Shown one piece after another: positions 4,362-61,596 of a stretch of 64,000 bases of DNA. The notes under the pieces were generated by a model. It saw nothing but the letters and a program-made list of their open reading frames with translations, was not told the DNA's origin and searched no databases. A program made the translations under genes and the position numbers. The first letter of the stretch is position 1; the number at the start of each line of letters is the position of its first letter. Source of the DNA: an uncultured Christensenellaceae bacterium (lineage in GTDB: Bacteria; Bacillota; Clostridia; Christensenellales; CAG-1252); NCBI GenBank assembly GCA_964391805.1, contig CAYMNK010000005.1, positions 96,979 to 160,978 on the forward strand, in the 5' to 3' direction.

Positions 4362-4435
4362 TGGAGTATGGTGTAGTGGTAGCACATAGGCCTCTGACTC
4401 CTATGGTGTTGGTTCGATTCCGACTACTCCTGCCA
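4362..4435 (+). tRNA. tRNA-Gln (anticodon CTG), CCA encoded
   Basis: Hand-folded cloverleaf. Acceptor TGGAGTA/TACTCCT with U8. D arm GTGT-AGTGGTA-GCAC. Anticodon arm TAGGC-CTCTGAC-TCCTA (U33, CUG, A37). T arm GTTGG-TTCGATT-CCGAC. Discriminator G plus CCA. Positions 1:72 are U.U and 31:39 are C.U mismatches. Confidence 0.8.
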
Positions 4436-5693: not shown

Positions 5694-6284
5694 ATGAATC
5701 TTATCTTTGTGATATTGTTGGTTTTCTCAATTATCGCTATATGCATTTCTTCTCCGGATTCTGCGGTATCTTTTATGTTGGAAGGAACAAGCGAAGCGGT
5801 TAGGCTTACGATAAAACTGACTGCAATATACTCATTATGGTCGGGGCTTTTGCGTATAATGACCGATTCGGGTGTCGATAAAGCCGTTGCTACACTCTTT
5901 AAACCCATAACTAAACGAATTTTTAAGGGCGAAAACGACGAAACACAGTGTTTTATTGCTATGAACCTTACTGCGAACTTTTTAGGTATGGGCGGTGCAG
6001 GAACCTCTATGGGAATACGGTCAATGGAATTGATGGGACAAAATAAAAACAAAATCGATAAAAACATGATGCTGTTTTATATAATAAATGTTAGTTCGGT
6101 ACAATTATTGCCAACCACCGTAATAGCACTGCGGTCATCGATGTCGAGCAAAAGCCCTTCAGATATCATTCTTCCGGCGTTTATCGCAAGTCTATTCACC
6201 ACCCTTGTGGGCGTATTGTCAGTGTTGATAATAGAGCAAATAAAGACGGTGTTTGCCAAAAAAATTAAAAGAAAACATGCTTAA
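5694..6284 (+). CDS. spmA: spore maturation protein A (nucleoside-recognition/Gate domain membrane protein)
   Basis: Start moved from the track's TTG (5658) to ATG 5694, giving MNLIFVILLVF. This is a polytopic membrane protein paired with an overlapping spmB, as in Bacillus spmAB. Confidence 0.75.
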   Translation: MNLIFVILLVFSIIAICISSPDSAVSFMLEGTSEAVRLTIKLTAIYSLWSGLLRIMTDSGVDKAVATLFKPITKRIFKGENDETQCFIAMNLTANFLGMGGAGTSMGIRSMELMGQNKNKIDKNMMLFYIINVSSVQLLPTTVIALRSSMSSKSPSDIILPAFIASLFTTLVGVLSVLIIEQIKTVFAKKIKRKHA

Positions 6285-6792
6285 GTATACGGCATATGTA
6301 ATTCCGATATTGATAGTGATACTGCTTATCGTATCGCTTTTTAAACGAAACAAAGCTTTCGATAGTTTTGCATCGGGCGCCAAAGAAGGATTGGAACTTG
6401 CTATAGGTGTTTTTCCTTTTCTTGCATCGGTATTTGTTTGCGTGACATTATTTAGGGTGAGCGGATTAGCGACATACCTATCCGAAATTTGTAAACCATT
6501 ATTTGAATTCACCGGGGTTCCCATCGAATTAGCCGAGTTGATAATGATTAAGCCATTTAGCGGTTCGGGAACGTTAGCCGAACTCGAAAATATCTATACG
6601 CAATACGGAGTGGATAGTTATATATCTCGATGTGCATCGGTGATATTAGGAAGCAGTGAGACAGTGTTTTATGTATCGGCAGTATATTTTTCTAAATGTA
6701 AAGTCAAAAACCTATCCTATGGAATTCCGTTATCGTTATTGATCACATATTTAGGTGCAATTTTTAGTTGTTTTATATGTCGATATTTGTAG
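6277..6792 (+). CDS. spmB: spore maturation protein B
   Basis: ATG 6277 overlaps the spmA stop (ATGCTTAA). SFASGAKEGLELAIGVFPFL and IKPFSGSGTLA resemble B. subtilis SpmB (FVEGGKEGIKIAF..., IRPISGTAAL). Confidence 0.75.
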   Translation: MLKYTAYVIPILIVILLIVSLFKRNKAFDSFASGAKEGLELAIGVFPFLASVFVCVTLFRVSGLATYLSEICKPLFEFTGVPIELAELIMIKPFSGSGTLAELENIYTQYGVDSYISRCASVILGSSETVFYVSAVYFSKCKVKNLSYGIPLSLLITYLGAIFSCFICRYL

Positions 6793-6805
6793 CGAGGATG
6801 CTTAT

Positions 6806-7250
6806 GCGGATTTTAGATACCGACGCTATGCGTCGCCCTTCGGGTTCGACTTCGGTTTTCAACCTTCGCTCAGTATGACAAGATTGGAGCGCTGACGCTT
6901 GCCTTGATATGGATTAAGATTCCAATGCTTCGCTTTGCCCTATGGGTTCGACTTCGGGCTTTGCTTAGAATGACATTTGATGGTGCTCAGTATGACAAGA
7001 ATGTTATAGTCCGCCGTCATACTGAGTGGAGCGTAAGCGGAATCGAAATTCGAACAAAGTGAGAATCAAACGGCGTAGGCGTTTGGTATCTTGCGGACGG
7101 AATGATAAGTCTTTGTTATCGTATCCGCTTTTATTAATGCGGAATTAGATACTACAAGGCAAGCCTTGCACTGCTTCGCAGTTCGACTACAGACTTCGTC
7201 TTCCGCTCAGTATGACGAGACGGGAAGCTTAGTATGACATATATTTGATG
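6806..7250. repeat. Intergenic mosaic repeat locus R2: four units, three forward and one inverted (7010-7115), each with a different first hairpin
   Basis: The hairpins are cgacgc-tat-gcgtcg (6821-6835), caatgc-ttc-gctttg (one mismatch), the inverted unit's caaacg...cgtttg, and caaggc-aa-gccttg. All are followed by TTCGA(C/T)T ... (C/T)TCAGTATGAC tails. Confidence 0.9.
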
Positions 7251-7291
7251 ATTTTGCAAATAATATAAATAATCTACCACCTATACTACAT

Positions 7292-8803
7292 ATGAAAAAT
7301 GGTAAACGAACACTTATAAAGAGCGGAATAGTTCTAACGGTTTTCGGTGTTATCTCCAAAGTTATAGGACTGTTTTATAGAATTCCGCTTACCAATTTAC
7401 TCGGAGCAAACGGAATGGGGGTATATCAAATGATATTCCCGGTCTACGCATTACTTGTGGCGGTAGTATCTTCTGCTGTTCCTGTTTTGGTATCGAAAAA
7501 TCTCAATGCGTTGAGTGACACCGAATTAAAAAAGGGATTCTTCACCGAATCATTTTTTTATTCATTATCAACCGGTTTGATATTTGGCATTGGACTTATT
7601 GCCGTCGCTAAGTTGTTGGGGTTATTGCAAGGAAATGCTGAAGTCGAAACCGGATATTATATGATAGCACCTGCAGTTTTCTTTGTATCGGTGCTGTCGG
7701 CATTTCGAGGCTGGTTTAACTCGTGTTTAAATACCATTCATACGGCAATCAGCGGACTTTTCGAACAACTATTCAAACTGTCGGGAATTGCTACTTGCTA
7801 TATTTTTGGATTAGAAGGGATAAAAGCGGTTAACATCGCACTTTTAGGCATATCGTTGTCGGAATTTGTTGCTTGCGCATATGCGTTAATTATGTTTTTA
7901 GTTAAGGGCGGACGACTTGTTCGCGGTATTATACGAGTTCCGTTTTCGGCGTTTGTATCGGCATCAGCTCCTTTGACGGTGGGCGGACTCGTATTTCCGT
8001 TAGCATTATTTACAGATAGCATACTTGTTACAAGACTGTTGGCGTTACATGGTTTATCCGAAGCGGATGCAATTACCGAGTACGGCATTTTTTCGGGTGC
8101 GGTAGGCACGCTTATCAATGTTCCTCAAAGCCTTGCTATTTCGTTTGCGGTAACAATGATACCTGTAGTTGCAAGACACAAGAAGGAACAAAACATTAAA
8201 GGTATAAGAAGAGGGGAAATGACGGCGTTAAAAGCGGTTTTGATTATTGCTTTACCCTGTGCCGTTGCGTTATTTGTATTAGCTAAGAGCGTGATAGCGT
8301 TCCTTTATCCTGCATTTTCCGCAAGCGAGCAATCACGCGCGGTTTTTCTTCTTCAAATATCGGTCATACAAATACCCATATTGAGCGTACTTCAATTATT
8401 CGGTTCCTTTTTGCAAGCACTCGATAAAGGGGTAGTATCGGCAAAAAACATGATAATTGCTTGTGTAATCAAACTTGGAATAAACTTTACTTGTATTCGA
8501 TTAGGAATAGAAGGCATAATATTAGCAAATACAATTTGTTATTCCGTTTGTGCGGTACTCGATATCATATACGGATACCGTCTTACAGGCAAAACCGAAT
8601 TCAAAAGCGGAATACCGATATTGTTCGCGTCTCTCATCATGGGTGGAATTATGCTTCTAATTAATAAAAAAATATCAAATAATCTTCTGTCGCTTGCACT
8701 TTCGTTGTTGATTGGCGGAGCAATTTATGTTATAATACTACTAATATTAAACAAGATCGGCAATAGTTTACCCCAAAAAGCCGATCGATCGGAGGAATTA
8801 TGA
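7292..8803 (+). CDS. MOP-superfamily flippase (SpoVB / YabM / MurJ-like polysaccharide biosynthesis protein)
   Basis: About 14 predicted TM segments. The N-terminus LIKSGIVLTVFGVISKVIGLFYRIPLTNLLGANGMGVYQM is typical of SpoVB/YabM. It lies directly upstream of a yabN-like gene, as in Bacillus. Confidence 0.75.
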   Translation: MKNGKRTLIKSGIVLTVFGVISKVIGLFYRIPLTNLLGANGMGVYQMIFPVYALLVAVVSSAVPVLVSKNLNALSDTELKKGFFTESFFYSLSTGLIFGIGLIAVAKLLGLLQGNAEVETGYYMIAPAVFFVSVLSAFRGWFNSCLNTIHTAISGLFEQLFKLSGIATCYIFGLEGIKAVNIALLGISLSEFVACAYALIMFLVKGGRLVRGIIRVPFSAFVSASAPLTVGGLVFPLALFTDSILVTRLLALHGLSEADAITEYGIFSGAVGTLINVPQSLAISFAVTMIPVVARHKKEQNIKGIRRGEMTALKAVLIIALPCAVALFVLAKSVIAFLYPAFSASEQSRAVFLLQISVIQIPILSVLQLFGSFLQALDKGVVSAKNMIIACVIKLGINFTCIRLGIEGIILANTICYSVCAVLDIIYGYRLTGKTEFKSGIPILFASLIMGGIMLLINKKISNNLLSLALSLLIGGAIYVIILLILNKIGNSLPQKADRSEEL

Positions 8804-11120: not shown

Positions 11121-11212
11121 GCTATTCGTTACCGTCCAAGATACTGCAAGGTAAACCTTGCACTGCTACACAGTTCAACTGCGGACTTCGTCTTAGAATG
11201 ACATTTGATGGT
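11121..11212 (+). repeat. Intergenic mosaic repeat locus R3: a single forward unit
   Basis: cgttaccgtccaagatac + tgcaagg-taaa-ccttgca (11145-11162) + ctgctacacagttcaactgcggacttcgtcttagaatgacatttgatgg. Confidence 0.9.
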
Positions 11213-15765: not shown

Positions 15766-16098
15766 ATGCAACGACAGTACCGTTTAACCAATCGACGCAG
15801 CTTCGACTATATCTACAAACACGGTAAGTGTTATAATGATAATTTGTTTACTCTCGTTTGTTTGGAAGGTAAATATCCATCATTCAGAGTAGGTTTTGTT
15901 ACGGGTAAAAAGGTCGGTAAAAGCGTTATTCGCAATAAGGTTCGCCGTAGAATGAGGGAAGCATTCCGTTGTTTCAAGGTTGAAGGATATAATTCCTATA
16001 TACTTGTGGCTCATTCTCGTGCGAGCGAAGCGACATTCGATGAGGTGAAGGAATCTGTCGGTATTTTATTATCAAAAGCCGGGAAGTTAGTTCAATGA
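15766..16098 (+). CDS. rnpA: ribonuclease P protein component
   Basis: Basic 110-aa protein with the KKVGKSVIRNKVRRRMREAF RNR motif, in rpmH-rnpA synteny. Confidence 0.92.
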   Translation: MQRQYRLTNRRSFDYIYKHGKCYNDNLFTLVCLEGKYPSFRVGFVTGKKVGKSVIRNKVRRRMREAFRCFKVEGYNSYILVAHSRASEATFDEVKESVGILLSKAGKLVQ

Positions 16099-16337
16099 AA
16101 GCACTTGCCAGGTTTTTGTTAAAATTTTATAAAAAGTATATTTCTAACGCAATCTCTGCGTCGTGTATTTATACTCCGACATGCTCGTCATATACCTATC
16201 AAGCGATAGAAAAGTACGGATTTTTCATCGGTTGCTTTAAGGGCGGACTGAGAATTTTGAGATGTAATCCGTTTGCTAAAGGCGGTTTTGATCCCGTTAG
16301 AGAGAATTATAGAGGAAAAGCAAAATGGTTAATTTAG
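16095..16337 (+). CDS. yidD: membrane protein insertion efficiency factor YidD
   Basis: The C...TPTCSSYTYQAIEKYG...LRILRCNPF motif family. It overlaps the rnpA stop. Confidence 0.9.
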   Translation: MKALARFLLKFYKKYISNAISASCIYTPTCSSYTYQAIEKYGFFIGCFKGGLRILRCNPFAKGGFDPVRENYRGKAKWLI

Positions 16338-17503
16338 AATTTTTATTTTCCCAAGCTCCCCAAATCACCAATTGGATCGGTAAACTTATTTATATGCTTT
16401 ACGAGGCAATCGGTAATTTCGGTTGGACGGTCGTAATCTTCACCTTATGTTTGAAGGTGATTGTTTCTCCCCTCGATATTTGGCAAAAGAAGGTTACGAG
16501 GAAAAATAATATTGCAATGAAGAGGATGGAAAAGCCCATGGCTCAACTCCGTGACGCATATCAGGACGATCCTCGTATGTTGCAAACCAAACAAATGGAA
16601 CTTTATAAGCAGTACGGCTATTCCACCTTTGGAGCATGCCTACCCAGTTTGGTGACGATGATTATATTCTTCGTTATTTTTCAAGGCTTCAACGCAACCT
16701 GTAAATACGAAAACCAAATGATGGTTTACGATCTTGCACAATCTTACGAATCACTCGTGGTCAATACTGGGCTTATTGACGGTAAAATACAAGATCTGTT
16801 TTTAGAAGAAAACAAGGATGCATACGATACACTTGTTCGCTACGGCGTAGACGTTGAGCAATATAGGGATCGTACCGAATTCACCGATGAAGAAGTCGAC
16901 GAGTTTATCGATTCCATCATGTTAGCCGCATACGATGCCAATTCTGTCACCGATAAAGGTGTTAAAAAATGGGAGTGGCTGTGGGTAGATAACGTATTTA
17001 TGGGTGATTCATGGCACGACACAGTACCTACACTTGAAACATACGTAGGTACCGGTTTGGGTAAGTTAAATTCATCCTTGCCCGATTGTAACTTTAGAGT
17101 TCGCGCAAAATATAATTCGAATATATATAACGCACTGTTAGCACCTGCTCAAGCGAAATATAATAAAACCAAAACTTTCGATATCAAGAATTGGAACGGC
17201 TATTTGATTCTTCCTCTTCTTTCTATCGCTTTATCAATTCTTTCCACAAAGCTTTTGCGTGCCGGTACGCCTAAGACACAGTCTTATGATGCTAACGGTA
17301 ACGCCATCGATACGGATAAGCAAATGAGAATGATGAATTGGTTTATGCCTATTATGATCGGTGTATTCAGTTTGTTCTACACGGCTGCGTTTACGATATA
17401 CATGTTCTTCAGTTCGTTGATAACGGTTATATTCAATTTAGTATATAATGCCGTTTCCAAGAAGAAGGACGCTGAAATGGAAGAAGGAATCATTAAGAGG
17501 TAA
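16325..17503 (+). CDS. yidC: YidC/Oxa1-family membrane insertase (long form, 392 aa)
   Basis: Synteny after yidD. The segments IVIFTLCLKVIVSPL, MELYKQYGYSTFGACLPSLV and the C-terminal TM helices match YidC. A roughly 150-aa insert separates the conserved parts. Confidence 0.85.
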   Translation: MVNLEFLFSQAPQITNWIGKLIYMLYEAIGNFGWTVVIFTLCLKVIVSPLDIWQKKVTRKNNIAMKRMEKPMAQLRDAYQDDPRMLQTKQMELYKQYGYSTFGACLPSLVTMIIFFVIFQGFNATCKYENQMMVYDLAQSYESLVVNTGLIDGKIQDLFLEENKDAYDTLVRYGVDVEQYRDRTEFTDEEVDEFIDSIMLAAYDANSVTDKGVKKWEWLWVDNVFMGDSWHDTVPTLETYVGTGLGKLNSSLPDCNFRVRAKYNSNIYNALLAPAQAKYNKTKTFDIKNWNGYLILPLLSIALSILSTKLLRAGTPKTQSYDANGNAIDTDKQMRMMNWFMPIMIGVFSLFYTAAFTIYMFFSSLITVIFNLVYNAVSKKKDAEMEEGIIKR

Positions 17504-17505
17504 CT

Positions 17506-18189
17506 ATGGTATCTATAGAAAAAGAAGGAAGGAATGTTGAAGTTGCCATATCCAACGGATTGGAACAACTCGGTGTTGAGAGAGAAGAAGTAATAATCGA
17601 AGTAATCAAGGAAGGCGGACTGTTTTCCAAGGCTAAGGTAAGATTGACCGTTAAGGCAACTCCTGCTGACGAACTTTGCGAATATGTCGAAGGTTTATTG
17701 AGATACATGGGTTTGGATTGCTCCTGTGTCGTAGTTGAAAAGGAAGGTACATTATACTGTGATATAAGCGGTAAAGATAGCCCAATTGCTATAGGATATC
17801 GCGGTGAAGTTTTATCGGCAATTCAGTATTTGGCTACCATTTATTTGAATAGAAACAATAAGAGTAATCTAAAACTTATCGTCGATGTCGAAGGTTATCG
17901 CGACCGTAGACGTCAAACCCTTATCCTTCTTGCTAAGAGATTGGCAGATAAGGCAATTGCGTCGGGTTCGGCGGTTGATCTCGAGCCGATGAATACAATT
18001 GATAGACGTTCTATTCACGAGGCATTGGCAGAAGACGATAGAGTTACCACAGAATCAAAGGGAGACGAACCTAATCGTTATGTAAGTATCGTCCCCAAAG
18101 AAAAGGAAATTTCCTACGGAACGAGTAACAGTTTCAAAAAGTCGGGATTTAAAACCCGTTCGTTCGGACAAAAGAAAAAAAGATTTTAA
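17506..18189 (+). CDS. jag: Jag/KhpB RNA-binding protein (Jag_N, KH, R3H)
   Basis: Synteny after yidC. The R3H-like segment is LEPMNTIDRRSIHEAL. Confidence 0.88.
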   Translation: MVSIEKEGRNVEVAISNGLEQLGVEREEVIIEVIKEGGLFSKAKVRLTVKATPADELCEYVEGLLRYMGLDCSCVVVEKEGTLYCDISGKDSPIAIGYRGEVLSAIQYLATIYLNRNNKSNLKLIVDVEGYRDRRRQTLILLAKRLADKAIASGSAVDLEPMNTIDRRSIHEALAEDDRVTTESKGDEPNRYVSIVPKEKEISYGTSNSFKKSGFKTRSFGQKKKRF

Positions 18190-18211
18190 TTATTAATATA
18201 AGAGGCTGTCG

Positions 18212-19519
18212 ATGAGTATTATTGCAGGTATATCTACGCCTATTGGAAACGGAGCGATTAGTATCGTGCGTATGTCCGGAGAGGGCGCGCTTGAAATTGC
18301 GCTCCGTTTTTTTTCGTGTAAACGAATTAGAGAAGGTGAATTGATACCTAATTATATGTATCTTGGAAGTTTTCACGGTGATAATTTCAAGGATCGCTGC
18401 CTTTTTGTATATTTCAAAGCCCCTCGAACTTATACCGGAGAAGATTTGGTTGAATTTCATCTTCACGGCGGAGTAACCGTTACACAAAAAGTTTTACACA
18501 CCTTATTGCAAAATGGGGCGGTAATGGCAGAGAACGGCGAATTTACCAAGCGTGCATTTCTTAACGGCAAGATCGGCTTAGACGAAGCCGAAGGTATTTT
18601 AGGTATCATTAATGCCGAAAGCGAAACAGAAATAAGCGCGGCATACAGCGTTATGCAAGGTACGGTCTCTAAAAGGGTTAAACCAATTGCCGATAGACTT
18701 TTGAGCGTGGTAAGTATGCTTGAAGCGTGGTTCGATTATCCTGAGGAAATGGAAGACGAAGTTAATTCCGACGTTTTTCCCGAATTAGAGTCAATTAAGG
18801 TGGATATAGAAGCATTATTATCCACAGCTAAGCAAGGCAGAATGGTTCATAACGGCATATCTGTTGCCCTTGTGGGTAGACCTAACGTCGGTAAATCGTC
18901 ATTACTCAACGCATTTTTGAGAGAAGAGCGCGCGATAGTTACCGATATTCCAGGTACTACAAGAGATACCATTGCCGAAAGTATAGTTTATAAGGGAGTG
19001 CGTATCAATTTATTAGATACGGCAGGCATTCGCGAAAGCACCGATATAGTGGAGTGCAAGGGAATAGAGCGTTCTTTAGATGCAGTTGCTAAGGCTGATA
19101 TCGTAATTTACGTATTGGACGCGTCGATATCCGAAATACCCGATGAAACAATGATCGAGGGTGCGCATGGTAAAATAATCTACGTCAATAACAAGGTAGA
19201 TTTAGCAGAGGGAAATGGTGAATACCGCAATGTTTCTGCCCTTAAACGTATAGGTATAGACGAATTGCTCGATGAAATAGTTAGTGCAGTAGGCGATAAA
19301 AGAATGTACGGAGAAATGCTTACAGTCGATCGTCACATATCCGCTGTATCGTCGGCATTGGACAGTTTGAATAATGCCTTAAATAATCGCTTTGCATCTT
19401 TTGATTGCTTGTTAGTCGACCTTAAAGAATGTTTAACCGCTTTATTGGAAATTGACGGAGGAGCGGCCTCCGAAAAGATAATTGACGATATATTCTCGCG
19501 TTTTTGCGTAGGTAAATAG
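18212..19519 (+). CDS. mnmE: tRNA modification GTPase MnmE
   Basis: GRPNVGKSSLLN P-loop, DTAGIRE, and the C-terminal FCVGK. Confidence 0.93.
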   Translation: MSIIAGISTPIGNGAISIVRMSGEGALEIALRFFSCKRIREGELIPNYMYLGSFHGDNFKDRCLFVYFKAPRTYTGEDLVEFHLHGGVTVTQKVLHTLLQNGAVMAENGEFTKRAFLNGKIGLDEAEGILGIINAESETEISAAYSVMQGTVSKRVKPIADRLLSVVSMLEAWFDYPEEMEDEVNSDVFPELESIKVDIEALLSTAKQGRMVHNGISVALVGRPNVGKSSLLNAFLREERAIVTDIPGTTRDTIAESIVYKGVRINLLDTAGIRESTDIVECKGIERSLDAVAKADIVIYVLDASISEIPDETMIEGAHGKIIYVNNKVDLAEGNGEYRNVSALKRIGIDELLDEIVSAVGDKRMYGEMLTVDRHISAVSSALDSLNNALNNRFASFDCLLVDLKECLTALLEIDGGAASEKIIDDIFSRFCVGK

Positions 19520-19522
19520 TAT

Positions 19523-21376
19523 ATGGATAAGTTTTTTGATGCAGTAGTAATAGGCGCAGGTCACGCAGGGTGCGAGGCGGCGTTGGCAATAGCAAGGATG
19601 GGTAAGACCGTCCTTTTGACTGCGACCGAAGAAGAAACGGTAGCATATATGCCTTGTAATCCGCATATCGGTGGCACGGGTAAGGGCCATTTAGTTCGCG
19701 AAATAGACGCCTTGGGCGGTGAAATGGGCATTAATGCCGATAAAACGCTTTTACAAATCAAAATGCTCAACACCACTAAAGGTCCTGCCGTACAAAGTTT
19801 AAGAGGACAAGCCGATAAGAGTGCATATCACAAAAGCATGCTCCAAACACTTCGCAATCAAGAAAATCTTACCCTCGATTTCGGAGAAGTTACCGCCGTA
19901 CACGAAATAGACGGCGCTGTTAATTCGATCACCTTTAACGGCGAAGAGATTAAAACCAATGCCGTAATCGTTTGCGCAGGCGTTTACATGAACGCAAGGA
20001 TAATAAGAGGCGACGAAGAATATTTCGAAGGTCCGTCCGGATTCCGTCCTTCATTAGAATTAAGTAAGCAATTACAAGAAATCGGTATTCGATTCCGTAG
20101 ATTTAAAACAGGCACTCCTGCCAGAATTTATAGAGACAGTATCGATTTTTCCTTGATGGAAAAAGAAGACGGAGAGGATAGCGTATATAGTTTTTCGTGT
20201 CTATCGGATACTAAACTTGTAGAACAATTTCCTTGCTACTTAACCTATACCAACGAAGAAACACATAGAATAATTAGAGAAAACATCCATAGAGCACCCA
20301 TGTATAACGGCGCAATCAAGGGTACGGGACCGAGATATTGCCCGTCCATCGAAGATAAGGTAATGCGTTTTTACGATAAACCTCGTCATCAAATATTCGT
20401 CGAACCCGAAAGTGCCGATAGTGATTTGATGTATATACAGGGTATGAGTTCATCTATGCCACGCGATGTACAGGAATTAATGTACCATTCGGTTAAGGGA
20501 TTGGAACATTGTAGATTCGCTAAATATGCATATGCTATCGAGTACGACTGCATCGATCCGCTTCAATTAAAAACAACATTGGAGAGTAAGGCAATATGCG
20601 GATTATTCTTCGCAGGACAGGTTAATGGTAGTAGCGGATACGAAGAAGCGGGTGCACAAGGCTTAATTGCCGGTATCAATGCTAAGCGTTATCTCGATAA
20701 CGAAAAACCTTTGATTTTATCGAGATCGGATGCTTATATAGGTGTTTTAATAGACGATTTGGTCACATTAGGAACAAATGAGCCTTATAGAATGATGACC
20801 GCAAGATGCGAATATAGATTGACACTTAGACAAGATAATGCCGATAGGCGTTTGACCGAAATCGGTAGAGAATACGGGCTTGTAGACGATTATAGATATC
20901 AAGCGTACCTCAATAAACAAAAAGAGTGGCAACGTGTTGCAAGCCTTCTCGAAAATTTGCTCATCAAAGCCGAAGTAGCATCTCCAATAGTCGAAAGAGG
21001 CGGTGAACATCCATTAACTCAGTCGATAAAAGCAAGTGATCTATTGAAACATAACGGAGTCAGCTATAAGGACCTCATGATGCTTCCCGAATTGCAGTCG
21101 GTTAGCGAATCCATATTAATGGAAGTTGCCGTTGAAATCAAATATCAGGGATATCTCAAAAAAGAGCGTGTAGCAATAAAAGAAGCGCAAAAAATGGAAG
21201 ATAGAATTATCCCTGACGATATCGATTATAAATCCATTACCAACCTTAGACTCGAAGCAAGACAAAAACTTACCGATGTAAGACCACGCACTTTAGGTCA
21301 AGCTGCCCGTATCAGCGGTGTCAGCCCTGCCGATATCAACGTATTGATTATAGAATTATTGAAGAGAGGTAACTGA
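19523..21376 (+). CDS. mnmG: tRNA uridine 5-carboxymethylaminomethyl modification enzyme MnmG (GidA)
   Basis: VIGAGHAGCEAA FAD motif, NPHIGGTGKGHLVREIDALGG and GTGPRYCPSIEDK. Confidence 0.95.
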   Translation: MDKFFDAVVIGAGHAGCEAALAIARMGKTVLLTATEEETVAYMPCNPHIGGTGKGHLVREIDALGGEMGINADKTLLQIKMLNTTKGPAVQSLRGQADKSAYHKSMLQTLRNQENLTLDFGEVTAVHEIDGAVNSITFNGEEIKTNAVIVCAGVYMNARIIRGDEEYFEGPSGFRPSLELSKQLQEIGIRFRRFKTGTPARIYRDSIDFSLMEKEDGEDSVYSFSCLSDTKLVEQFPCYLTYTNEETHRIIRENIHRAPMYNGAIKGTGPRYCPSIEDKVMRFYDKPRHQIFVEPESADSDLMYIQGMSSSMPRDVQELMYHSVKGLEHCRFAKYAYAIEYDCIDPLQLKTTLESKAICGLFFAGQVNGSSGYEEAGAQGLIAGINAKRYLDNEKPLILSRSDAYIGVLIDDLVTLGTNEPYRMMTARCEYRLTLRQDNADRRLTEIGREYGLVDDYRYQAYLNKQKEWQRVASLLENLLIKAEVASPIVERGGEHPLTQSIKASDLLKHNGVSYKDLMMLPELQSVSESILMEVAVEIKYQGYLKKERVAIKEAQKMEDRIIPDDIDYKSITNLRLEARQKLTDVRPRTLGQAARISGVSPADINVLIIELLKRGN

Positions 21377-21377
21377 T

Positions 21378-22064
21378 ATGACTATTCAAGAAATACTTTC
21401 ATCCTTCGATATAACTGTAAGCAATTTACAAAAAGAAAAGCTCGACACGTTCTATTCACTGCTCGTCGAATGGAATGAAAAAATGAATCTTACAGCGATA
21501 ACCGATTATGACGAGGTTCTTATAAAGCACTTCGCCGATAGCATTATCGGGTTGCCCTATATGAATGGTAAAACGTGTGATGTCGGTGCAGGTGCAGGAT
21601 TTCCGTCCATTCCTTTATCGGTAATGGGCGTAGACGGAATGGTTTTAGCGGATAGCTTGGCTAAACGTATAAACTTCCTTAACGAGGTTATAGATAAACT
21701 CGATTTGAATTGCACTGCGGTTCATATTAGAGCGGAAGATATGGGTAGAGGTGCGTACAGAGAGAGTTTCGATACCGTTACAGCAAGAGCGGTTGCAAAC
21801 ACTCAAACATTGGTTGAATACTTGTTACCATTGGTTAAAGTAGGCGGTAAAGCGGTGCTATATAAGAGCGGAGATGTTGACGAAGAACTGAAAAACAGCG
21901 AGTTCGCCATAACAAAACTCGGCGGTAAAATAGAAAAAGTTGTGCGTTATGAGTTGTGCGGAATGGAACGCAGTTTGGTAATTATTGATAAAATATCCGC
22001 TACACCTAAGGCATATCCGAGATCGGGTAATAAACCAAGAACACAACCATTGACTAAAAAATAA
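21378..22064 (+). CDS. rsmG: 16S rRNA (guanine527-N7)-methyltransferase RsmG (GidB)
   Basis: Synteny. WNEKMNLTAI and DVGAGAGFPSIPL motifs. Confidence 0.92.
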   Translation: MTIQEILSSFDITVSNLQKEKLDTFYSLLVEWNEKMNLTAITDYDEVLIKHFADSIIGLPYMNGKTCDVGAGAGFPSIPLSVMGVDGMVLADSLAKRINFLNEVIDKLDLNCTAVHIRAEDMGRGAYRESFDTVTARAVANTQTLVEYLLPLVKVGGKAVLYKSGDVDEELKNSEFAITKLGGKIEKVVRYELCGMERSLVIIDKISATPKAYPRSGNKPRTQPLTKK

Positions 22065-22100
22065 CGAATAATTCAATAATAATTAAGGAGACTGAATACA

Positions 22101-23210
22101 TTGATAGATATAGATGCTTTACGAAATAATCTAAACGACCTTAAAACGCTTGTCAAAGAGTTGGGCGTATCTATTAATATATCCAAACTCGAAAGCGAGT
22201 TGGTAGAACTCGAGAAAAAACAGGAAAATCCCGATATTTGGTCCAATGTCAAAGAAGCTCAAGCTGTCATGCAACAAGCCAAAAGATTATCCAATAGGAT
22301 AAATTCATATAAGAAACTATCTTCAGGTATCGATGAAAACTTGGAATTAATTGCGATGATCGAATCATTGGGCGAATATGACGAATTGGAATCCGTGCAA
22401 ACGTCGTATAAAGATCTGAAATCGACTGCCGAAAAAATGCGTTTAGAAACCTATCTATCGGGCGAATACGACGCTTGTAACGCAATTCTTGCCATTCACC
22501 CGGGCGCCGGCGGTACCGATTCGCAGGATTGGGCTGAAATGTTATACCGTATGTATACAAGATATGCAGAGAAAAAAGGATTTACATGTCAATTAATTGA
22601 CCTATTACCAGGCGAAGAGGCAGGTATCAAGAGTGTAACTTTTGAGGTAAGCGGTGATATGGTATACGGTTATCTCAAATCGGAAAGAGGTGTACATCGT
22701 TTAATACGTATGTCACCGTTCAATTCGGACGGATTACGTCACACATCATTCGCTTCACTTGACGTAATGCCGATTATAGAAGACAATTCGGTTATTGAAA
22801 TCAAGCCCGAGGATCTCAAAATCGATACTTATCGTTCGGGCGGGGCGGGCGGTCAACACGTCAACCGTACCGACAGTGCCGTACGAATTACCCATATACC
22901 GACAGGCATAGTTACTCAGTGCCAAAACGAGCGTTCTCAAATACAAAATCGCGAAGTTGCAATGAAAATGCTGAGAGCACGGCTTGCTGAACGGAAGGAA
23001 AAAGAAAACCTCGAACGCAATAAAGCAATAAGAGGCAATATGAAAAAAATAGAATGGGGCAGTCAAATCAGAACATACACGTTCCAGCCCTACACGATGG
23101 TCAAGGACGAACGAACGGGTATGACGACATACAACGTCGACGACGTAATGGACGGAGATATAGACTGTTTTATAGACGAATATCTTAAGAGATCGGTGTC
23201 AAATGAATAA
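22101..23210 (+). CDS. prfB: peptide chain release factor 2, encoded as one uninterrupted frame
   Basis: SPF tripeptide (RMSPFNS) and GGQ (SGGAGGQHVN). TTG start 9 nt after AAGGAGA. There is no in-frame TGA or +1 shift site near codon 26. Confidence 0.9.
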   Translation: MIDIDALRNNLNDLKTLVKELGVSINISKLESELVELEKKQENPDIWSNVKEAQAVMQQAKRLSNRINSYKKLSSGIDENLELIAMIESLGEYDELESVQTSYKDLKSTAEKMRLETYLSGEYDACNAILAIHPGAGGTDSQDWAEMLYRMYTRYAEKKGFTCQLIDLLPGEEAGIKSVTFEVSGDMVYGYLKSERGVHRLIRMSPFNSDGLRHTSFASLDVMPIIEDNSVIEIKPEDLKIDTYRSGGAGGQHVNRTDSAVRITHIPTGIVTQCQNERSQIQNREVAMKMLRARLAERKEKENLERNKAIRGNMKKIEWGSQIRTYTFQPYTMVKDERTGMTTYNVDDVMDGDIDCFIDEYLKRSVSNE

Positions 23211-24310: not shown

Positions 24311-25185
24311 GAATGAAGAGTAATAAGTGAAAATGTGTTGATTCTTTGATTGATGGAGAACGTTATCGTTCGCAAGATTCCATTTATCGTTACCGCCTAA
24401 GATACTGCAAGGCGATGCCTTGCACTGCTACGCAGTTCGACTACGCTTACGATAGTATGACATTTGATGAGTAATATAATTTGTGCAAATAAAAAGCAAG
24501 TGCGATGACTTGCTTTGGGCGGGCGATTACTAATCGCCCCTACTTTTGTAATATTTTGTTGTTCTTTATGCAATTTATATGTCCTTTTATATGCTTTTTT
24601 ACAAGGAATTTAGATACCGACGCTATGCGTCGCTGCTTCGCAGTTCGACTACGGTCTATCGACCTACGCTCAGTATGACATTTGATAGTAAAATGCTATT
24701 CAAAGTTTTAGAATGAGAAGATGGGCAATATTATTTCTGCAAATAAAAAGCAAGTGCGATGACCTGCTTTTGGCGGGCGATTACTAATCGCCCCTACTTT
24801 TGTAATATTTTGTTGCTCTTTATGCGATTTATATGTGCTTTTATATGCTTTTTTACAAGGGATTTAGATACCGACGCTATGCGTCGCTGCTTCGCAGTTC
24901 GACTACGCTCAGTATGACATGATCGTTGCTCCGCTATGCAGTTCGATTTCGCTTACGATAGTATGATAAGATTGGTCGCTGTCGCTTAACAAGGAATAAG
25001 ATTCCGACACCGATGGTGTCGCCCTACGGGTTCGACTACGGTTTTTCACCCTTCGCTCAGAATGACATTGATGGTGCGGGGGACTTAGAATGACATTTGT
25101 TTATCCATAACATTGCTTAGCATTACATCATTTGCAATGACGGGACGAATCAGTATGACTGCGGACGGCGTAGTAACAACATTAA
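24311..25185 (+). repeat. Intergenic mosaic repeat locus R4 (the largest): leader-like module F, about six hairpin units, two tandem copies of the ~200-nt twin-hairpin composite, and a partial module E
   Basis: See findings. Segment 24431-24687 is nearly identical to 30953-31210. Copies of aaaaagcaagtgcgatgac(t/c)tgcttt(t)ggcgggcgattactaatcgcccc lie at 24490-24540 and 24746-24794. Confidence 0.92.
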
Positions 25186-40639: not shown

Positions 40640-41040
40640 ATTTAATGGAATTTCGTCCGCAAGATTATATGTCATCCTGAGCAAAATCGAGGAATCTAAT
40701 TCCTTGTTTATAAGGATTTTAGATTCCAATGCTTCGCATTGCCCTATCGGGTTCGACTACAGGCTACGCCTTTCGCTCAGTATGACATTATTGGACGTTT
40801 AGAATGTCATTAACAATATGTGCGTTATCGTCCGCATCAATCAAAAATTCATATAACGGCGGACAAAAATCCGCTTTTATAATTTGGATTAAGATACTGC
40901 AAGGCAAGCCTTGCACTGCTTCGCAGTTCGACTTCGGTCTATCGACCTACGCTCAGTATGACATTGATGGTACGGCGCTATTCAGTTCCGCTCAGTATGA
41001 CACTTGATTGTAAAGTACTTTTCTGAGTTAAGTATGACAT
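40640..41040 (+). repeat. Intergenic mosaic repeat locus R6
   Basis: Units carry caatgc-ttc-gcattg (near 40727) and tgcaaggc-aa-gccttgca (near 40897). There are four (C/T)(T/A)AGTATGACA tails and a short GTCCGC...GCGGAC-bounded element at 40826-40866. Confidence 0.9.
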
Positions 41041-42351: not shown

Positions 42352-42652
42352 AAGGATTTTAGATTCCGACGCATTGCGTCGCCCTACCGGGTTCGACTAC
42401 AGACTTCGTCTTTCGCTCAGAATGACCTTATTAGACGCTTACGCTTGCCTTGAAATGGGATAGGATAGTGTCACCTATGGTGGTTCGACTTCGCTTACGC
42501 TCAGTATGACATAATCGTGGTTGTTATCGTCCGCAAGATACCAAATTGTTGCACAATTTGATTCGCACGATGTGCGAATTTCGACTACAAGGGCGCGATT
42601 AGTAATCGCCCGCATCAATCAAAAATCCATATAACGGCGGACGAGATGTGGG
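42352..42652 (+). repeat. Intergenic mosaic repeat locus R7: three forward units plus an inverted twin-hairpin fragment
   Basis: Hairpins are cgacgc-att-gcgtcg, cacc-tat-ggtg, caaattg-ttgca-caatttg and ttcgcac-gat-gtgcgaa. The fragment gggcgcgattagtaatcgcccgc is also present. Confidence 0.9.
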
Positions 42653-43811: not shown

Positions 43812-44068
43812 TTGGATTAGATACCTACGCTATGCGTCGCCCTACGAGTTCGACTTCGGTCTATCGACCTTCGCTGTAGGGGCCGATTAGTAATCGCCCT
43901 ATCCTTGTTAAGGCAAGCGATAACGTCCCCATATGTTATTCCAAGCGTAGAAAACTACGATAAGATGACACATATATTTATCCGCAATTTTGCGATAGCA
44001 ATACATCATTTGCCGAATAGGCAAACTTCATTCATCATTATGCGTAGCAGAACATCATTTGCAATAAC
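43812..44068 (+). repeat. Intergenic mosaic repeat locus R8: a truncated unit, an inverted twin-hairpin fragment, an inverted linker and a full module E abutting the DUF4349 gene stop
   Basis: ggattagatacctacgctatgcgtcgccctacgagttcgacttcggtctatcgaccttcgct is followed by gtaggggccgattagtaatcgccc. Module E (43965-44068) has ttgc-gata-gcaa, tttgcc-gaata-ggcaaa and tgc-gta-gca. Confidence 0.88.
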
Positions 44069-44069
44069 G

Positions 44070-46392: not shown

Positions 46393-49300
46393 TTATTCTT
46401 GTGACTCGTCGCGTGATTTGATAATCAGGGTATATGTATCATTGATAATGGTATAGTTTTTGTCAAGTGACACCACTTTGACGGTATAATTACCTACAGA
46501 CTCGGGATAGGTCACTTTATTGCCTAAAGTGTCAAATATTTCTATTGTCGCATCGAAGTCGTACTCATTTACAATTGTTAATGCAAGCGATGAACCTTCG
46601 TAAACCTCGTATATCGAGGAAGATATAAAAATAGCCCTATCGCCGTTAAGTATGGTGAGTTTATCTATATTTCGCGGTAAAACAGTTAAGGGCAATTCTA
46701 TAGTGATAGCCTCGTTAATTCCGTCTTTGGTCAATACAAACTTTGAATCATTAATACCGATAGAAAGGGTATAATTACCTACTGCAAGGATGCTACCGCT
46801 ACTTATAACGGCACCGTTTTCATCGAGCATTTTAAGTGATATGTTTTTAGAGTCGAGTAAGCTCGCAACCTTTGTTGCAACTTGATTATCAACGAGATAC
46901 TTGATAACGGTATATTCGGCATCGAATTCAATTGAAAGATTCACCTTGCTCAAATCAAAATCATCACTCGAGAGCATAACGGGCTTATCGGTTTGACAAT
47001 CGATCGATACGCTACCGACATTACCTATATATTCTCTACCGTTCCAAATTTTCAAATACATCTTTTGATTAAAAATAAAGTCAAATGCAAGAGTCGTAAA
47101 ATTTTTATGAGCAACTAACGTCTTGACGACTTTAACTCCGTTTTGATAATAGGAATATGTTATATTAAGACTATCCACGTTGATAATCAGTTCTTTCCAA
47201 GCAAGGTTTGCTTGATATACGTTTGCCGTATTGGAAAACGATGTAAATCCCTTATCTACAGAATAAATAATTCCGCCGGCAACGTATTGTCCTATCACAT
47301 CATTATCGATGGTGATCGATTCCAATGTGTTTTGAATAGAATACACCGAATATCCGTTCTTTAATTGATATCCACCCGCATCGTTACCGACTAAAATATC
47401 AACATCCTTAGCAATCAGTCCGCCGTTAAAGTCAGCCGACATATCGGTTATATCGTATTTAAGTGTCATATAATATAGATAATCGTCATCGATAAATTTA
47501 ACTTTAACTGCCTTATGCGCTATAGTTCTACCATTCTCGATAACTATATTTTCGCCAAAGGGTGAATCGTCAAATACATTGACGTCTATTCGCATTAGGG
47601 ACACGCCGTCAATATATACAAGTTCGATAATTCTACGGCTAACTGTGACTGCGCACGGTATTTCTATATTTCCGAATACCGTTTTTATTATCGCTTGAAC
47701 TTGCCCGCTTGCACCTAAATAAAGGGTTGTATCGGCAAATGTCTCAACATTCCATCCGTCAAGACGCGCTACTGTTTTGACTCCGTTAATATAGAATGAT
47801 ACCTTGTTAGGATAGCATTTTGAATCGGTAGCATCGGCAAGATAAGGATCGATTGTAATATTTGTCCCCGATGCAGTCATCGAATTAATTTCCGACATCG
47901 AATTATTAACGGACGAATTTGCTAAAGGTAAAAATCCGTCGAAGGATAGCGACTCTAAAGGCGAGCCCTCTATAGAAAGAGTCAATGCCGAACAAATAAT
48001 GTTACCTACTTTGGCGGTGAGAGATATCCTACCGCTAACCTCGTTTACCGCTACACCTTTAGCCATTTCGGTGCGATATAATGTAGCTATATCTTCTAAG
48101 CCTATCCATTCGGTGATATCGAACCAACTATTGACGGTATTGGTATCGGCATATTCAAAATATAACTTACCTAAACAACCGTCATTATCACATCCGCAAA
48201 TAAGGCTATGCAAGAATGTAGAATCGGTCAAATTATTGACAATCAAATTGCCATTAGAATCGGTATCGAGCAATTTTACGCTTATTACCTTTGTCTTTAC
48301 TAAATTCGTTTCGGGTTCGTCAACATTGCCTAAGACAGGATTACCGTTCGAGTCGAACACAAAATAGTAATCGTCGGGGTCCTTGCTCGAAATCCACAAA
48401 CGAATATCACTAAGTTTTTGAGCGAGCGGAATATATACCGAGACCTTCTCATAATAACCAAGTGACGCAACATCGACGGTCGATAACGCAGATATATCCC
48501 AACTGATTGGTAAGTCAAAATAGATGCTCTCTCCGTTAGAATCGGTTATGCCCTTAAAGGAAACGCGTGCGAAAGATGGATAACTGTCATAGCACATATA
48601 ATTCGTTCTGTTGGGATCGATAGTAAGACTGTATTCGCTGTCTCCTTCCGCTAATTTATAATAAACAAAACCTTCTACTCCGTTCTCTATTCGATAATGT
48701 TTGAGCGCCCTATGCGATTCATCTGCTAAAACGAAATGTCCGTCTACTAAAACATAGGTTCCGTTACTATCCTCAACATAGGTTGGAGTGGTCAATATAG
48801 GTGAAGTCGGTTCGGACGGATTACCATCGGAATCTAACAAAGTCCATTCGTCTACAATCGCCTTGACAAAGGATATGTTTAATTCGATATGCTTATCAGC
48901 AACCGCTATCACACCGCCATAAACGAATTGTTCTCCTCTATACCAAATTTCTTTATCGTTATAAGACTTGAGATTCCAATCGATATTACGAATGACCGCA
49001 CTCGATGCGGGATAATCGAAGTGTGCCTCGCCCACCGTAAGCGTGTATGCCTCATAATCCATAACCACGCTGTCGGGAATAGCAAAATCATAGGGGTTTT
49101 TGTTCAATAATTCGAACTTGATGTTTGTTCCTATTTCATTCTCGGTTGCTACTACCGTCGATCCGCTATAAAGTGTTATTGCGGTCAAATCGTAGTTTTT
49201 AAATATATAGGTGTAATTGAATGTTTGGTATCCGCCTATATCATCACCTACAATAAGAGATATTTTACCGCTTATCGGTTCCACAGAATATAGAGGAATG

Positions 49301-52638: not shown

Positions 52639-52796
52639 ATTTCCTCCGACTAATAAGTAAACTCTCAAAAGTACTTATCACTATTAGTTTACAACTATAA
52701 GTATAGCGGTGTCAATATAATATTTTTTAATATTACGCGTACGCGAAAGAAAAGATTGCATTTTTTAAAGCAGTTTTTTGCATTATATCAGCTTTT

Positions 52797-52885
52797 ATGA
52801 TTTGGATTAAGATACTGCAAGGCAAGCCTTGCACTGCTTCGCAGTTCGACTTCGCCAAGGGTGCGATTAGTAATATTTTGTTGTT
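52797..52885 (+). repeat. Intergenic mosaic repeat locus R9: a truncated unit fused to an inverted twin-hairpin fragment
   Basis: ttttatgatttggattaagatactgcaaggcaagccttgcactgcttcgcagttcgacttcgcc is followed by aagggtgcgattagtaatattttgttgtt. The first 60 nt are identical to 55815-55874. Confidence 0.88.
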
Positions 52886-55726: not shown

Positions 55727-55958
55727 AGGATGCAGATACCGACGCTATGCGTCACCCTATCGGGTTCGACTACGCTTACTACGCTTGGGTATGACAAAAT
55801 TGGACGCTGGCGCTTTTATGATTTGGATTAAGATACTGCAAGGCAAGCCTTGCACTGCTTCGCAGTTCGACTGCGGTTTTCAACCTTCGCTCAGTATGAC
55901 AAGAACCGCAATAGTAAGTACATAATAAAAGCAAGTGCGAGGACTTGCTTTTGGCGAA
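55727..55958 (+). repeat. Intergenic mosaic repeat locus R10: two forward units plus the first hairpin of the twin-hairpin module
   Basis: gcagataccgacgctatgcgtcaccctatcgggttcgactacgc... comes first. It is followed by ggattaagatactgcaaggcaagccttgcactgcttcgcagttcgactgcggttttcaaccttcgctcagtatgaca, then aaaagcaagtgcgaggacttgctttt. Confidence 0.9.
55921..55952 (-). terminator. terminator of the P-type ATPase gene, provided by the repeat-family hairpin
   Basis: A 10-bp stem aaaagcaagt/acttgctttt lies 30 nt past the ATPase stop. On the minus strand it is followed by TTTTATTAT. Confidence 0.7.
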
Positions 55959-61517: not shown

Positions 61518-61596
61518 GAATTATATATATTACTTTATTGTCATATATTTATTATTTGCAGTGTGAGCGACTAATAGTTAAGGTAATAACCGATCA

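Follow-up and report, generated by a model that had tools for sequence, protein, structure and literature searches.

Structured, high-copy, intergenic palindromic repeats are a known kind of bacterial DNA, and the described systems closest to the element considered here are repetitive extragenic palindromes (REPs), the bacterial interspersed mosaic elements (BIMEs) and the REPINs, with their REP-associated tyrosine transposases (RAYTs). We analyzed 64,000 nucleotides of a contig from an uncultured Christensenellaceae bacterium (CAYMNK010000005.1, forward-strand positions 96,979 to 160,978; hereafter the window, in whose coordinates positions are given), in which a repeat unit of ~65-100 bases recurs in intergenic DNA and occupies 6806-7250 with four copies. 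Much like the REP, BIME and REPIN sequences, the units are short, high-copy, extragenic palindromes with lineage-specific presence. Both carry a conserved tetranucleotide at the 5′ foot of the hairpin, both have stems that differ by subfamily yet stay paired under T-rich loops (TTC or TGC), and both are seen as single copies, as inverted doublets or joined with other motifs into mosaics. The unit differs in that it consists of three hairpins and a closing stem, whereas a REP is a single imperfect palindrome, and its linkers are conserved over Clostridia families and orders, whereas REPs are usually species-specific; no RAYT gene was seen with the units. The compound four-arm build, the combination of fixed linkers with free stems, a closing pair with three states and the conservation across Clostridia families are unusual for this kind of repeat. 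We lean toward reading the unit as a high-copy, non-coding, modular and mobile DNA repeat of uncultured gut Clostridia, a mosaic like REPs, BIMEs and REPINs and not an RNA gene. It works like these elements and is not filed here as a member of their family.

Other described repeats are also comparable in part. The pneumococcal BOX and RUP elements, the Neisseria Correia elements and the enterobacterial repetitive intergenic consensus (ERIC) sequences are intergenic, occur in tens to hundreds of copies, are modular (boxA-boxB-boxC), are predicted to fold stably and can carry one another as insertions. The units are likewise intergenic, multi-copy and modular, whereas the BOX, RUP, Correia and ERIC elements have conserved modules or terminal inverted repeats with short target duplications in place of free stems and fixed linkers. 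Neither Rfam nor plasmids and phages yielded a sequence similar to the units. Features of miniature inverted-repeat transposable elements are likewise missing, as the outer stem of the unit is variable and absent from about half of the copies and the indels are flanked by 12- and 26-nt repeats. The textbook example of a folded single DNA strand that obeys ‘structure conserved, sequence not’ is the integron attC site, but the units have no RYYYAAC/GTTRRRY core sites, cassettes or integrase, their architecture differs, and their neighbors are housekeeping genes.

A unit reads, in order, AGAT(W/C)C, hairpin 1, hairpin 2, the linker TTCGACT with 2-3 further nucleotides, hairpin 3 and CGCTCAG(W/G)ATGAC. 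Hairpin 1 usually has 6-8 bp and a loop of 3-4 nucleotides. Hairpin 2 abuts it directly, has 3-4 bp and falls into the classes CCC..GGG, CTGC..GCAG and ATTCGCAC..GTGCGAAT, while hairpin 3 is absent, 4 bp or 8-11 bp long, or takes the form of an entire nested unit. The ATNC of the 5′ motif pairs with the GNAT of the 3′ motif (ATWC/GWAT) to form a closing helix of 4 bp. About half of the units have in addition an outer stem of 6-10 bp, the sequence of which varies from copy to copy (for example GTCCGC/GCGGAC, CCGTCC/GGACGG, CCGCCCC/GGGGCGG and CCCCACCT/AGGTGGGG); an outer-stem score of at least 5 was reached by 46% of units, against 15% with mismatched partners. The unit is a four-arm junction, a fold open to either DNA strand, and hairpin 1 is one of its arms. 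Unit 1 (6815-6879, + strand) consists of AGATAC (6815-6820), hairpin 1 CGACGC-tat-GCGTCG (6821-6835), hairpin 2 CCC-ttc-GGG (6836-6844), TTCGACT (6845-6851), hairpin 3 GGTT-ttc-AACC (6854-6864) and CGCTCAGTATGAC (6867-6879).

Units were located with a covariance model, R1, made from ten seeds, of which three were window units with loop lengths adjusted to align; all statistics were computed on real sequences re-aligned to R1. In the window the model reports 25 units at E < 1e-3, 23 of them on the + strand, in 11 intergenic regions and all outside the main gene-length open reading frames (ORFs). A search of one genome per species for GTTCGACT-N(3-30)-GCTCAGWATGAC gave at least 98 listed related loci, mostly in metagenome-assembled genomes (MAGs) that come from the guts of ruminants, humans and other hosts and represent uncultured Clostridia, among them Oscillospiraceae and Christensenellaceae. 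The window and the related loci among the matches listed come to 738 kb, with 188 R1 units.

The first-pass annotation of this DNA had proposed that hairpin 1 keeps its pairing despite sequence change, and this is borne out both in the window and in an alignment of 146 distinct copies from 63 sources (the window and loci from uncultured MAGs, mostly of gut Clostridia). In the window alone, pairing over the whole structure reaches 95.8% of cells, where shuffled partners give 72.7% and slid registers 28-43%; in hairpin 1 it reaches 97.3%, and each of the six pairs varies on both sides. Among the 146 copies, whose alignments were fitted to the model, 97.7% of cells are paired (73.1% shuffled, 35-55% in slid registers) and both sides have changed in 577 cells where 160 were expected. 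None of 500 shuffles and no slid register reached the observed pairing. Of 118 pattern-defined units, 49% carry, directly 3′ of AGATWC, a perfect stem of 6 bp or more, as do 3.7% of shuffled sequences. All helices covary in the 146-copy alignment, so that the earlier emphasis on hairpin 1 was right as to covariation and too narrow as to place: hairpins 2 and 3, the closing helix and the outer stem behave alike. The linkers are at least 90% conserved, against 40-70% for the commonest base at stem positions, and the 5′ motif AGAT(W/C)C is found in at least 90% of copies; the conservation of GTTCGACT and GCTCAGWATGAC stems partly from the choice of loci, since both are in the search pattern, and AGATNC and the GGATGAC variant lie outside that pattern. 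These data show that stem sequence is free and linker sequence fixed, so long as the stems remain Watson-Crick paired.

The individual stems listed by the annotation were all found, at most a few bases away. Its coordinated replacement of a C-G by a T-A pair near 11145 lies in unit 11139 (TGCAAGGT-aa-ACCTTGCA), and its two long copies (24400 and 30926) are 98% identical from GTTCGACT on and differ in hairpins 1 and 2. Perfect pairing at 6806-7250 holds for two of the four hairpin-1 stems; those of the units at 6917 (T·T) and 7147 (A·C) are mismatched. The annotation had also named two observations that would speak against it, namely that stems are often unpaired or that the stem classes are unrelated repeat families sharing a flank by chance. 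The pairing of 97.7% of cells contradicts the former, and the latter is contradicted by the classes being subfamilies of one element, with three linkers and the architecture in common. A version of the latter, in which the classes are unrelated families or simply chance hairpins, can draw on the TGCAAGG and CAAATTG classes of hairpin 1, which no single-pair step links to the others. We find it scarcely credible, as all classes have the three linkers, the helix order and the closing pair in common, their pairing lies above the shuffles and slid registers, and modules reassort among them.

There are two sources of stem diversity. The 91 copies with a clean hairpin 1 hold 26 different hairpin-1 5′ arms, and 13 of the 18 six-bp cores form one network of single base-pair replacements, which includes CGACAC, CGACGC, CGATGC, CGATGT, CGATAC, CGATTC and CAATGC; TGCAAG, TGCTCG, CAACAA and a few others stand apart. 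Within the window, hairpin-1 stems CGACGC and TGCAAGG each combine with hairpin-3 stems GGTC/GACC, GGTT/AACC and AGAC/GTCT, and CGACGC combines with two hairpin-2 classes. Hairpin-1 diversity is the product of both processes, stepwise base-pair replacement and exchange of modules between copies, and the conserved linkers are natural crossover points for the exchange. The ‘stem swapping’ of the annotation is accordingly real as diversity and is largely reassortment of whole modules between copies, the remainder being stepwise replacement of single pairs. The closing pair has three states (UA in 58 copies, AU in 50, CG in 28, unpaired in 7), which correspond to AGATTC with GAATGAC, AGATAC with GTATGAC and AGATCC with GGATGAC, and this link between ATNC and GNAT is kept although the modules between the two motifs reassort.

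Covarying double changes could also stem from the correction of quasi-palindromes by template switching, an established mutational mechanism. On this explanation paired stems would be regenerated by template switching, with recent copying of a few perfect masters and no selection on the fold, which agrees with stems that are nearly all Watson-Crick without wobble intermediates and with the many near-identical copies. As an account of the units it is quite improbable, in that the 26 hairpin-1 arms over 63 sources are all paired at the same place between conserved linkers, the loop bias is strand-asymmetric, and the covariation of ATNC with GNAT spans ~55 nt, which local switching hardly explains.

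The annotation had left open whether the fold is selected as RNA or as single-stranded DNA (ssDNA). Of the two, DNA is favored, and double changes alone are no proof of selection on the fold. Its suggestion that the stems could carry specificity drew no support, though no test was aimed at it directly. G·U makes up less than 1% of paired cells. In the core helices G·T was counted 20 times and A·C 24 times, and in the outer stem 5 and 4 times, so that this comparison, which was meant to reveal the folding strand, gave no asymmetry. A functional RNA is expected to tolerate G·U, and a G·T count no higher than that of A·C points to DNA. Nor does unit orientation depend on the neighboring genes: 26 units lie between convergent ORFs, 19 are antisense to both neighbors, 15 sense to both, and 11 lie between divergent ORFs. 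At seven or more MAG loci a complete antisense unit of the AGATTC type sits inside a unit of the AGATCC type, its outer stem being hairpin 3 of the host unit. As an observation in its own right, the resulting ~150-nt composites, AGATCC/GGATGAC-type units whose hairpin 3 is a complete antisense AGATTC/GAATGAC-type unit, are conserved across several MAGs (L023:1714-1871, L050:396-538, L034:6862-7010 and 7781-7928, L025:3294-3433, L051:4388-4527 and L087:3150-3306, by locus and position). In an Oscillospiraceae MAG the two types stand as head-to-head inverted pairs.

Loops and predicted stability were examined on the same question. Of 180 triloops, maximal pairing leaves 141 as T-N-C, for the most part with a closing C-G pair, and none as G-N-A; among tetraloops, 71 of 120 are T-N-N-C and none is UNCG. 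An apparent RNA sign, ‘UUCG tetraloops’, was rejected, as maximal pairing turns these into C-TTC-G triloops. G-N-A triloops, the complement of T-N-C, form unusually stable DNA mini-hairpins. REPs linked to RAYTs have a like bias toward TTC and TGC loops on the GTAG strand (PMC6006769 supplement). Single units folded as RNA are unremarkable against shuffles (z +0.4 to -2.0), whereas for units closed by an outer stem the folds of both DNA strands outdo shuffles, with z from -2.6 to -3.9; the unit at 31232-31296, for example, reaches -3.9 on the + and -3.3 on the - strand. No Rfam 15 family matched a unit of the window at gathering score or at E values up to 5, the tRNA at 4362-4432 alone reaching gathering, and in 16 related loci only a tRNA and a THF (tetrahydrofolate) riboswitch did so. 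A Gut-1 match scored 24 bits where 50 are required, and its place is an adjacent hairpin array of a second repeat type, not the units. A tRNA-like cloverleaf and the hammerhead, twister and hatchet ribozymes were considered and rejected, their helix order and cores not fitting and Rfam matches being absent. Scans of two arrays for promoters and terminators gave no promoter enrichment, and no terminator in 6700-7320; the units themselves are without T-tracts.

These results bear on the alternative of a structured RNA in many copies, with a four-way junction selected as RNA, which could be a small RNA, a ribozyme or an element of processing or stability. Covariation in four helices with conserved single-stranded joiners is indeed the classic signature of such an RNA, and the TTCGA of GUUCGACU fits the RNA T-loop consensus UUCRA, giving a T-loop-like UUCGA. 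TATAAT-like boxes 5′ of many Christensenellaceae copies, and terminator-like hairpins often 3′ of units in the window composites, also favor it. We nevertheless hold an RNA to be unlikely. G·U pairs are rare and no commoner than A·C, units are antisense to both neighbors as often as sense, and whole antisense units are nested in others. The loops are C-UNC-G triloops and neither UNCG nor GNRA, single-unit RNA folds are no stabler than shuffles, Rfam has no match up to E 5, and promoters are not enriched. Moreover, a density of ~1 unit per 2.5 kb and absence from the orthologous loci of close relatives misfit a conserved RNA gene. We infer that the fold matters as single-stranded DNA. A caution that extends beyond this repeat is that strong covariation alone does not make an element an RNA.

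The array at 6806-7250 also allowed us to follow gain and loss of units. It fills a 500-nt gap between an spmB-like gene (6253-6792) and spoVB/murJ (7292-8803); relatives alone gave the identities of the spmA- and spmB-like, spoVB, mazG and dus ORFs. Five relatives of the window's spoVB/MurJ have 92%, 88%, 87%, 71% and 70% identity. The order spmA-spmB-spoVT-spoVB is seen in relatives (L100, L103, L105, L107), to be compared with 6253-7292 here: here spoVT is absent and its place is held by the four-unit array, with one further unit after dus. In the relatives of 87-88% and 70-71% identity, spoVT and the start of spoVB overlap, and R1 reports no unit in 2.8-21 kb of syntenic DNA, the comparison with the 88% relative covering only a 2.8-kb contig. 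The 92% relative has a unit end at an equal distance from spoVB, of a different variant, and an extra 125-nt hairpin array with a 12-nt direct repeat on its flanks. Between two syntenic Christensenella-like MAGs, one (L026) has a ~390-nt block of three units that the other (L047) is without, flanked by a 26-nt direct repeat. At the dus-greA spacer, insertion junctions were unreadable, divergence of the intergenic DNA from the 87% relative being too great. Units are thus shown to arise, vanish and be replaced over short periods and to be patchy across lineages. Such turnover is the behavior of mobile or selfish DNA, which a conserved gene would not show.

Turnover and orientation also bear on whether the host keeps the units for a role in DNA organization or transcription, as insulators, terminators or binding sites for nucleoid proteins or topoisomerases, with mobility secondary. 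E. coli REPs have been proposed in such roles. Consistent with this, the units are strictly intergenic and favor convergent gene ends (26, against 11 divergent), composites contain terminator-like hairpins, and the linkers are conserved across distant Clostridia. The missing T-tracts, the absence of units from the same loci in close relatives and the highly variable copy number and arrangement make it a rather doubtful primary explanation; a host-recruited insulator or binding site is compatible with a mobile REP-like repeat.

Beyond the cellular loci, the unit pattern had no match among the 2.9 million viral contigs of IMG/VR, blastn of 6806-7250 against plasmid and phage collections gave none, and neither Rfam nor the literature searched by sequence strings and keywords describes the repeat family. 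Simplified units were observed in other phyla (L011:285-321, L029:700-1300, L080:4940-5090, L006:7180-7312, L054:1110-1260 and L027:3380-4100), in Planctomycetia, Balneolaceae, Flavobacterium, Abditibacteriales, Opitutaceae and Pedobacter. One example, GTCATCCTGAGCGAAGCGAAGGATCT, is the antisense of AGATCC-TTCGCTTCG-CTCAGGATGAC; these look-alikes are anecdotal. A minimal unit that resembles them, without hairpins (AGATTCC-TCGATTTT-GCTCAGGATGACA), occurs in the window at 40671-40697 (- strand), where it adjoins GTCCGCAAGAT. The simplified relatives hint at a superfamily spanning many phyla.

How might such an element spread? One possible mechanism is that the hairpins present the conserved linkers to a trans-acting enzyme, which reads them and in so doing spreads or maintains the element. 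A candidate would be an HUH/Y1-type single-strand nuclease, as for REP-RAYT systems or the ends of IS200/IS605 elements, in which case the ATNC that stands at the 5′ foot of hairpin 1 would serve as a ‘guide’ by pairing with GNAT of the 3′ motif. The logic of Y1 enzymes comes closest: there the cleavage site has as its pairing partner a tetranucleotide that lies 5′ of the hairpin foot (PMC6006769). The ATNC-GNAT pairing of the units is formally like this guide-cleavage-site pairing, with cleavage putative here, and the subterminal hairpins of IS200/IS605 ends and palindrome-associated transposable elements are recognized as single-stranded DNA, as we propose for the units. Unlike IS200/IS605 ends, the units have three hairpins between ‘guide’ and ‘target’ and do not flank a gene as left and right ends; their orientation ignores the GC-skew switch in the window, and a single IS200-like pseudogene lies nearby. 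Small palindromes within larger ones that are read by HUH enzymes are also known from the T-shaped inverted terminal repeats of parvoviruses and the single-strand origins of rolling-circle plasmids. The 3′ motif (C/T)AGTATGAC matches 8 of 9 bases of TAGTATTAC, the nick site of CRESS-DNA (circular Rep-encoding single-stranded DNA) viruses, a possible likeness that is given as a lead only. The units differ from such origins in being chromosomal, very numerous and absent from the viral contigs, phages and plasmids searched.

Several observations weigh against a mobile, REP-like repeat. No partner gene emerged when 641 ORFs near units were clustered, only ABC transporters recurring, and no RAYT, HUH or other transposase adjoins units in the 738 kb but for one IS200-like copy; the tblastn queries, IS608 TnpA and E. 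coli RAYT, were approximate sequences. With no such enzyme found in these loci, we put forward the mechanism of spread as a hypothesis. The + strand bias (23 of 25) does not flip with gene orientation or GC skew near 40 kb, contrary to what simple lagging-strand targeting predicts. The REP-defining GT[AG]G tetranucleotide is absent, the conserved 5′ motif of the 146 copies being AGAT(W/C)C. No short target-site duplication was seen, and the two resolved indels are flanked by direct repeats of 12 and 26 nt, which fits recombination or slippage better than classical transposition. The fitting of the alignments to the model and the presence of two linkers in the search pattern, as given above, count here too, as do the T-loop-like TTCGA and the TATAAT boxes ~12 nt 5′ of many Christensenellaceae copies, which would be compatible with transcription and an RNA role.

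At L035:147-719 and 846-912, the IS200-like copy, a Y1 gene with an in-frame stop or frameshift, ends ~120 nt from a unit, and this pseudogene may be beside the unit by coincidence. A weak tblastn match in L070 was rejected, being a membrane transporter and not a Y1 gene. None of the 43 window ORFs compared with Pfam is a transposase, integrase or Rep gene (61597-63222 and 63223-63990 were left out); those scanned are housekeeping or sporulation genes, and in an Oscillospiraceae MAG the ORFs between units are housekeeping genes as well.

A further reading goes beyond REP-like repeats. The units would then be a new class of non-autonomous, ssDNA-processed element, with a four-arm junction, sequence-free stems, a programmable ATNC/GNAT guide and target, and conserved linkers for an as yet unrecognized enzyme of HUH or other type to read, or else a new four-way-junction RNA with a T-loop. 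We regard this as possible, though tentatively so. If it were true, the AGATCC-TTCGCTTCG-CTCAGGATGAC sequences of Planctomycetota, Bacteroidota, Acidobacteriota and Verrucomicrobiota would be simplified relatives, and the repeat would be among the most widespread bacterial repeat superfamilies.

If the reading as a mobile REP-like repeat is true, extrapolation from 25 units in 64 kb would put a repeat named in no database at some thousand copies, by order of magnitude, in each genome of these uncultured gut Clostridia. It fills intergenic DNA and can replace genes, as here at the place of spoVT in relatives, and it breaks metagenome assemblies. It also yields spurious ORFs such as ‘..CHSERS..’ and ‘VILSE..’. 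Among 100 units from all loci, 11 coincide in part or whole with ORFs of 90 aa or more, which without exception look spurious; in L008, L009, L035, L042, L070 and L088 the ORFs lying over units carry the recurrent peptides ..RPCHSERS.. and ..VILSE... Such unit-derived ORFs probably contaminate protein databases. Compared with classical REPs, the element draws a cleaner line between a part read by sequence (the linkers) and a part read by shape (the stems), and its three-state closing pair lets a guide-target hypothesis for a single-strand DNA enzyme be framed and tested.

The remaining units of the window illustrate the range of variation; bit scores are those of R1 and the strand is + unless given. 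In the 6806-7250 array, unit 1 scores 79.5 bits (E 5.8e-22) and is followed by a spacer module (..GCGCTGACGCTTGCCTTGATATGGATTA, 6880-6916, + strand) of repeat family D19/D15, other copies of which lie at ~601-631 and 42436-42466. Unit 2 (6917-6974; 50 bits, E 7e-13) begins with AGATTC, ends with TTAGAATGAC and has hairpin 1 CAATGC-ttc-GCTTTG with its one T·T mismatch, hairpin 2 CCC-tat-GGG and a degenerate hairpin 3. Unit 3 is inverted (7016-7091, - strand; 30.2 bits, E 9e-07), with outer stem GTCCGC/GCGGAC, hairpin 1 CAAACG-cctacgc-CGTTTG and a hairpin 2 of the ATTC..GAAT class. Unit 4 (7147-7216; 63.7 bits) has AGATAC, hairpin 1 TACAAGG-caag-CCTTGCA with its one A·C mismatch, hairpin 2 CTGC-ttc-GCAG and hairpin 3 AGAC-ttc-GTCT. 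The spacer module, conserved as GCTGACGCTTGCCTTGATATGGAT, links consecutive units at 601-631, 6890-6920, 42436-42466 and 55800-55830; its CTTGATA shows a possible likeness to the nick site of pC194-type rolling-circle replicons.

At the start of the window, an inverted unit with outer stem CCGTCC/GGACGG (401-468, - strand; 40.9 bits) precedes two with related hairpins 1, CGACACC-atgt-GGTGTCG (522-590) and CGACACC-atag-GGTGTCG (783-851), each of 62.1 bits. The compensated variant at 11139-11202 (35.4 bits) has CCGTCC in its 5′ flank, the 5′ arm of the outer stem of the units at 401 and 61264, and the complementary 3′ arm is absent. The next units lie close together. The one at 24400-24461 (TGCAAGGC-gat-GCCTTGCA as hairpin 1; 34.8 bits) heads a 243-nt composite repeat of family D1; it is followed at 24612-24679 by a unit with hairpin 1 CGACGC-tat-GCGTCG and hairpin 2 CTGC-ttc-GCAG (83.8 bits), at 24866-24918 by one with the same hairpin 1 and without hairpin 3 (64.7 bits), and at 24999-25066 by one with hairpin 1 CGACACC-gat-GGTGTCG (58.2 bits). 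Hairpin 1 CGACGC-tat-GCGTCG recurs at 30926-30983 (45.6 bits), where the downstream composite is that of 24400 and the copy is a mosaic, and at 31134-31202 (75.6 bits). The unit at 31232-31296 (30.8 bits) has outer stem GTCCGC/GCGGAC and hairpin 1 CAAATTGT-tgc-ACAATTTG.

Further downstream, hairpin 1 is CAATGC-ttc-GCATTG at 40721-40786 (80 bits), TGCAAGG-caag-CCTTGCA at 40892-40962 (60.5 bits) and CGACGC-att-GCGTCG at 42361-42426 (82.1 bits). A degenerate unit follows at 42433-42510 (22.8 bits, E 1.7e-4), as does a truncated one at 42536-42600, which R1 does not report; the latter has hairpin 1 CAAATTGT-tgc-ACAATTTG, hairpin 2 ATTCGCAC-gat-GTGCGAAT and another hairpin module in place of the 3′ motif. 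In the unit at 43819-43882 (36.7 bits) hairpin 1 is decayed. TGCAAGG-caag-CCTTGCA is again hairpin 1 at 52810-52876, in a unit truncated past TTCGACT (24.5 bits), at 55831-55900 (66.3 bits), next to a unit at 55734-55795 (43 bits), and at 61264-61330, within the outer stem CCGTCC/GGACGG (45.8 bits). The last unit, at 61366-61430 (71.4 bits), has hairpin 1 CGACGC-aaa-GCGTCG.

Other modules accompany the units. An accessory module of two terminator-like hairpins, AAGCAAGT..ACTTGCTT and GGGCGAT-tacta-ATCGCCC (24483-24554, + strand; families D6 and D11), is frequently found 3′ of a unit, with further copies at 651-722, 24737-24808, 31005-31076, 55918-55956 and 61453-61524. A second repeat type lies 3′ of ..ATGACAT(N)TTTATCC at 25100-25142, 31328-31418 and 44027-44069 in the window and at L102:50-175. 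It consists of tandem short hairpins with stems TATTGC/GCAATA, TTGCC/GGCAA and TATGC/GCATA and a conserved ACWTCAT/CTTCAC linker, and it likewise keeps structure and not sequence; this is the type inserted in the 92% relative with the 12-nt flanking direct repeat. In a Christensenellaceae MAG, a 1.7-kb non-coding array of ~276-nt composite repeats was observed (L041:400-2200), many units of which are preceded by ..GTATAATAATGCGGATG, which gives a TATAAT box ~12 nt 5′ of AGATAC.

Among the neighboring genes, those at 15766-23210 (rnpA-yidC-jag-mnmE-mnmG-rsmG) and a ParA/Soj gene at 33306-34070 are of a kind typically near the replication origin in Firmicutes; the window has no dnaA, and a DnaA-box search of it found no origin cluster. 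On the - strand, 46393-52668 is a single ORF of 2091 aa with zero Pfam matches. Its neighbors are large surface-protein-like genes with BspA leucine-rich repeat, Listeria-Bacteroides repeat and DUF6273 domains.

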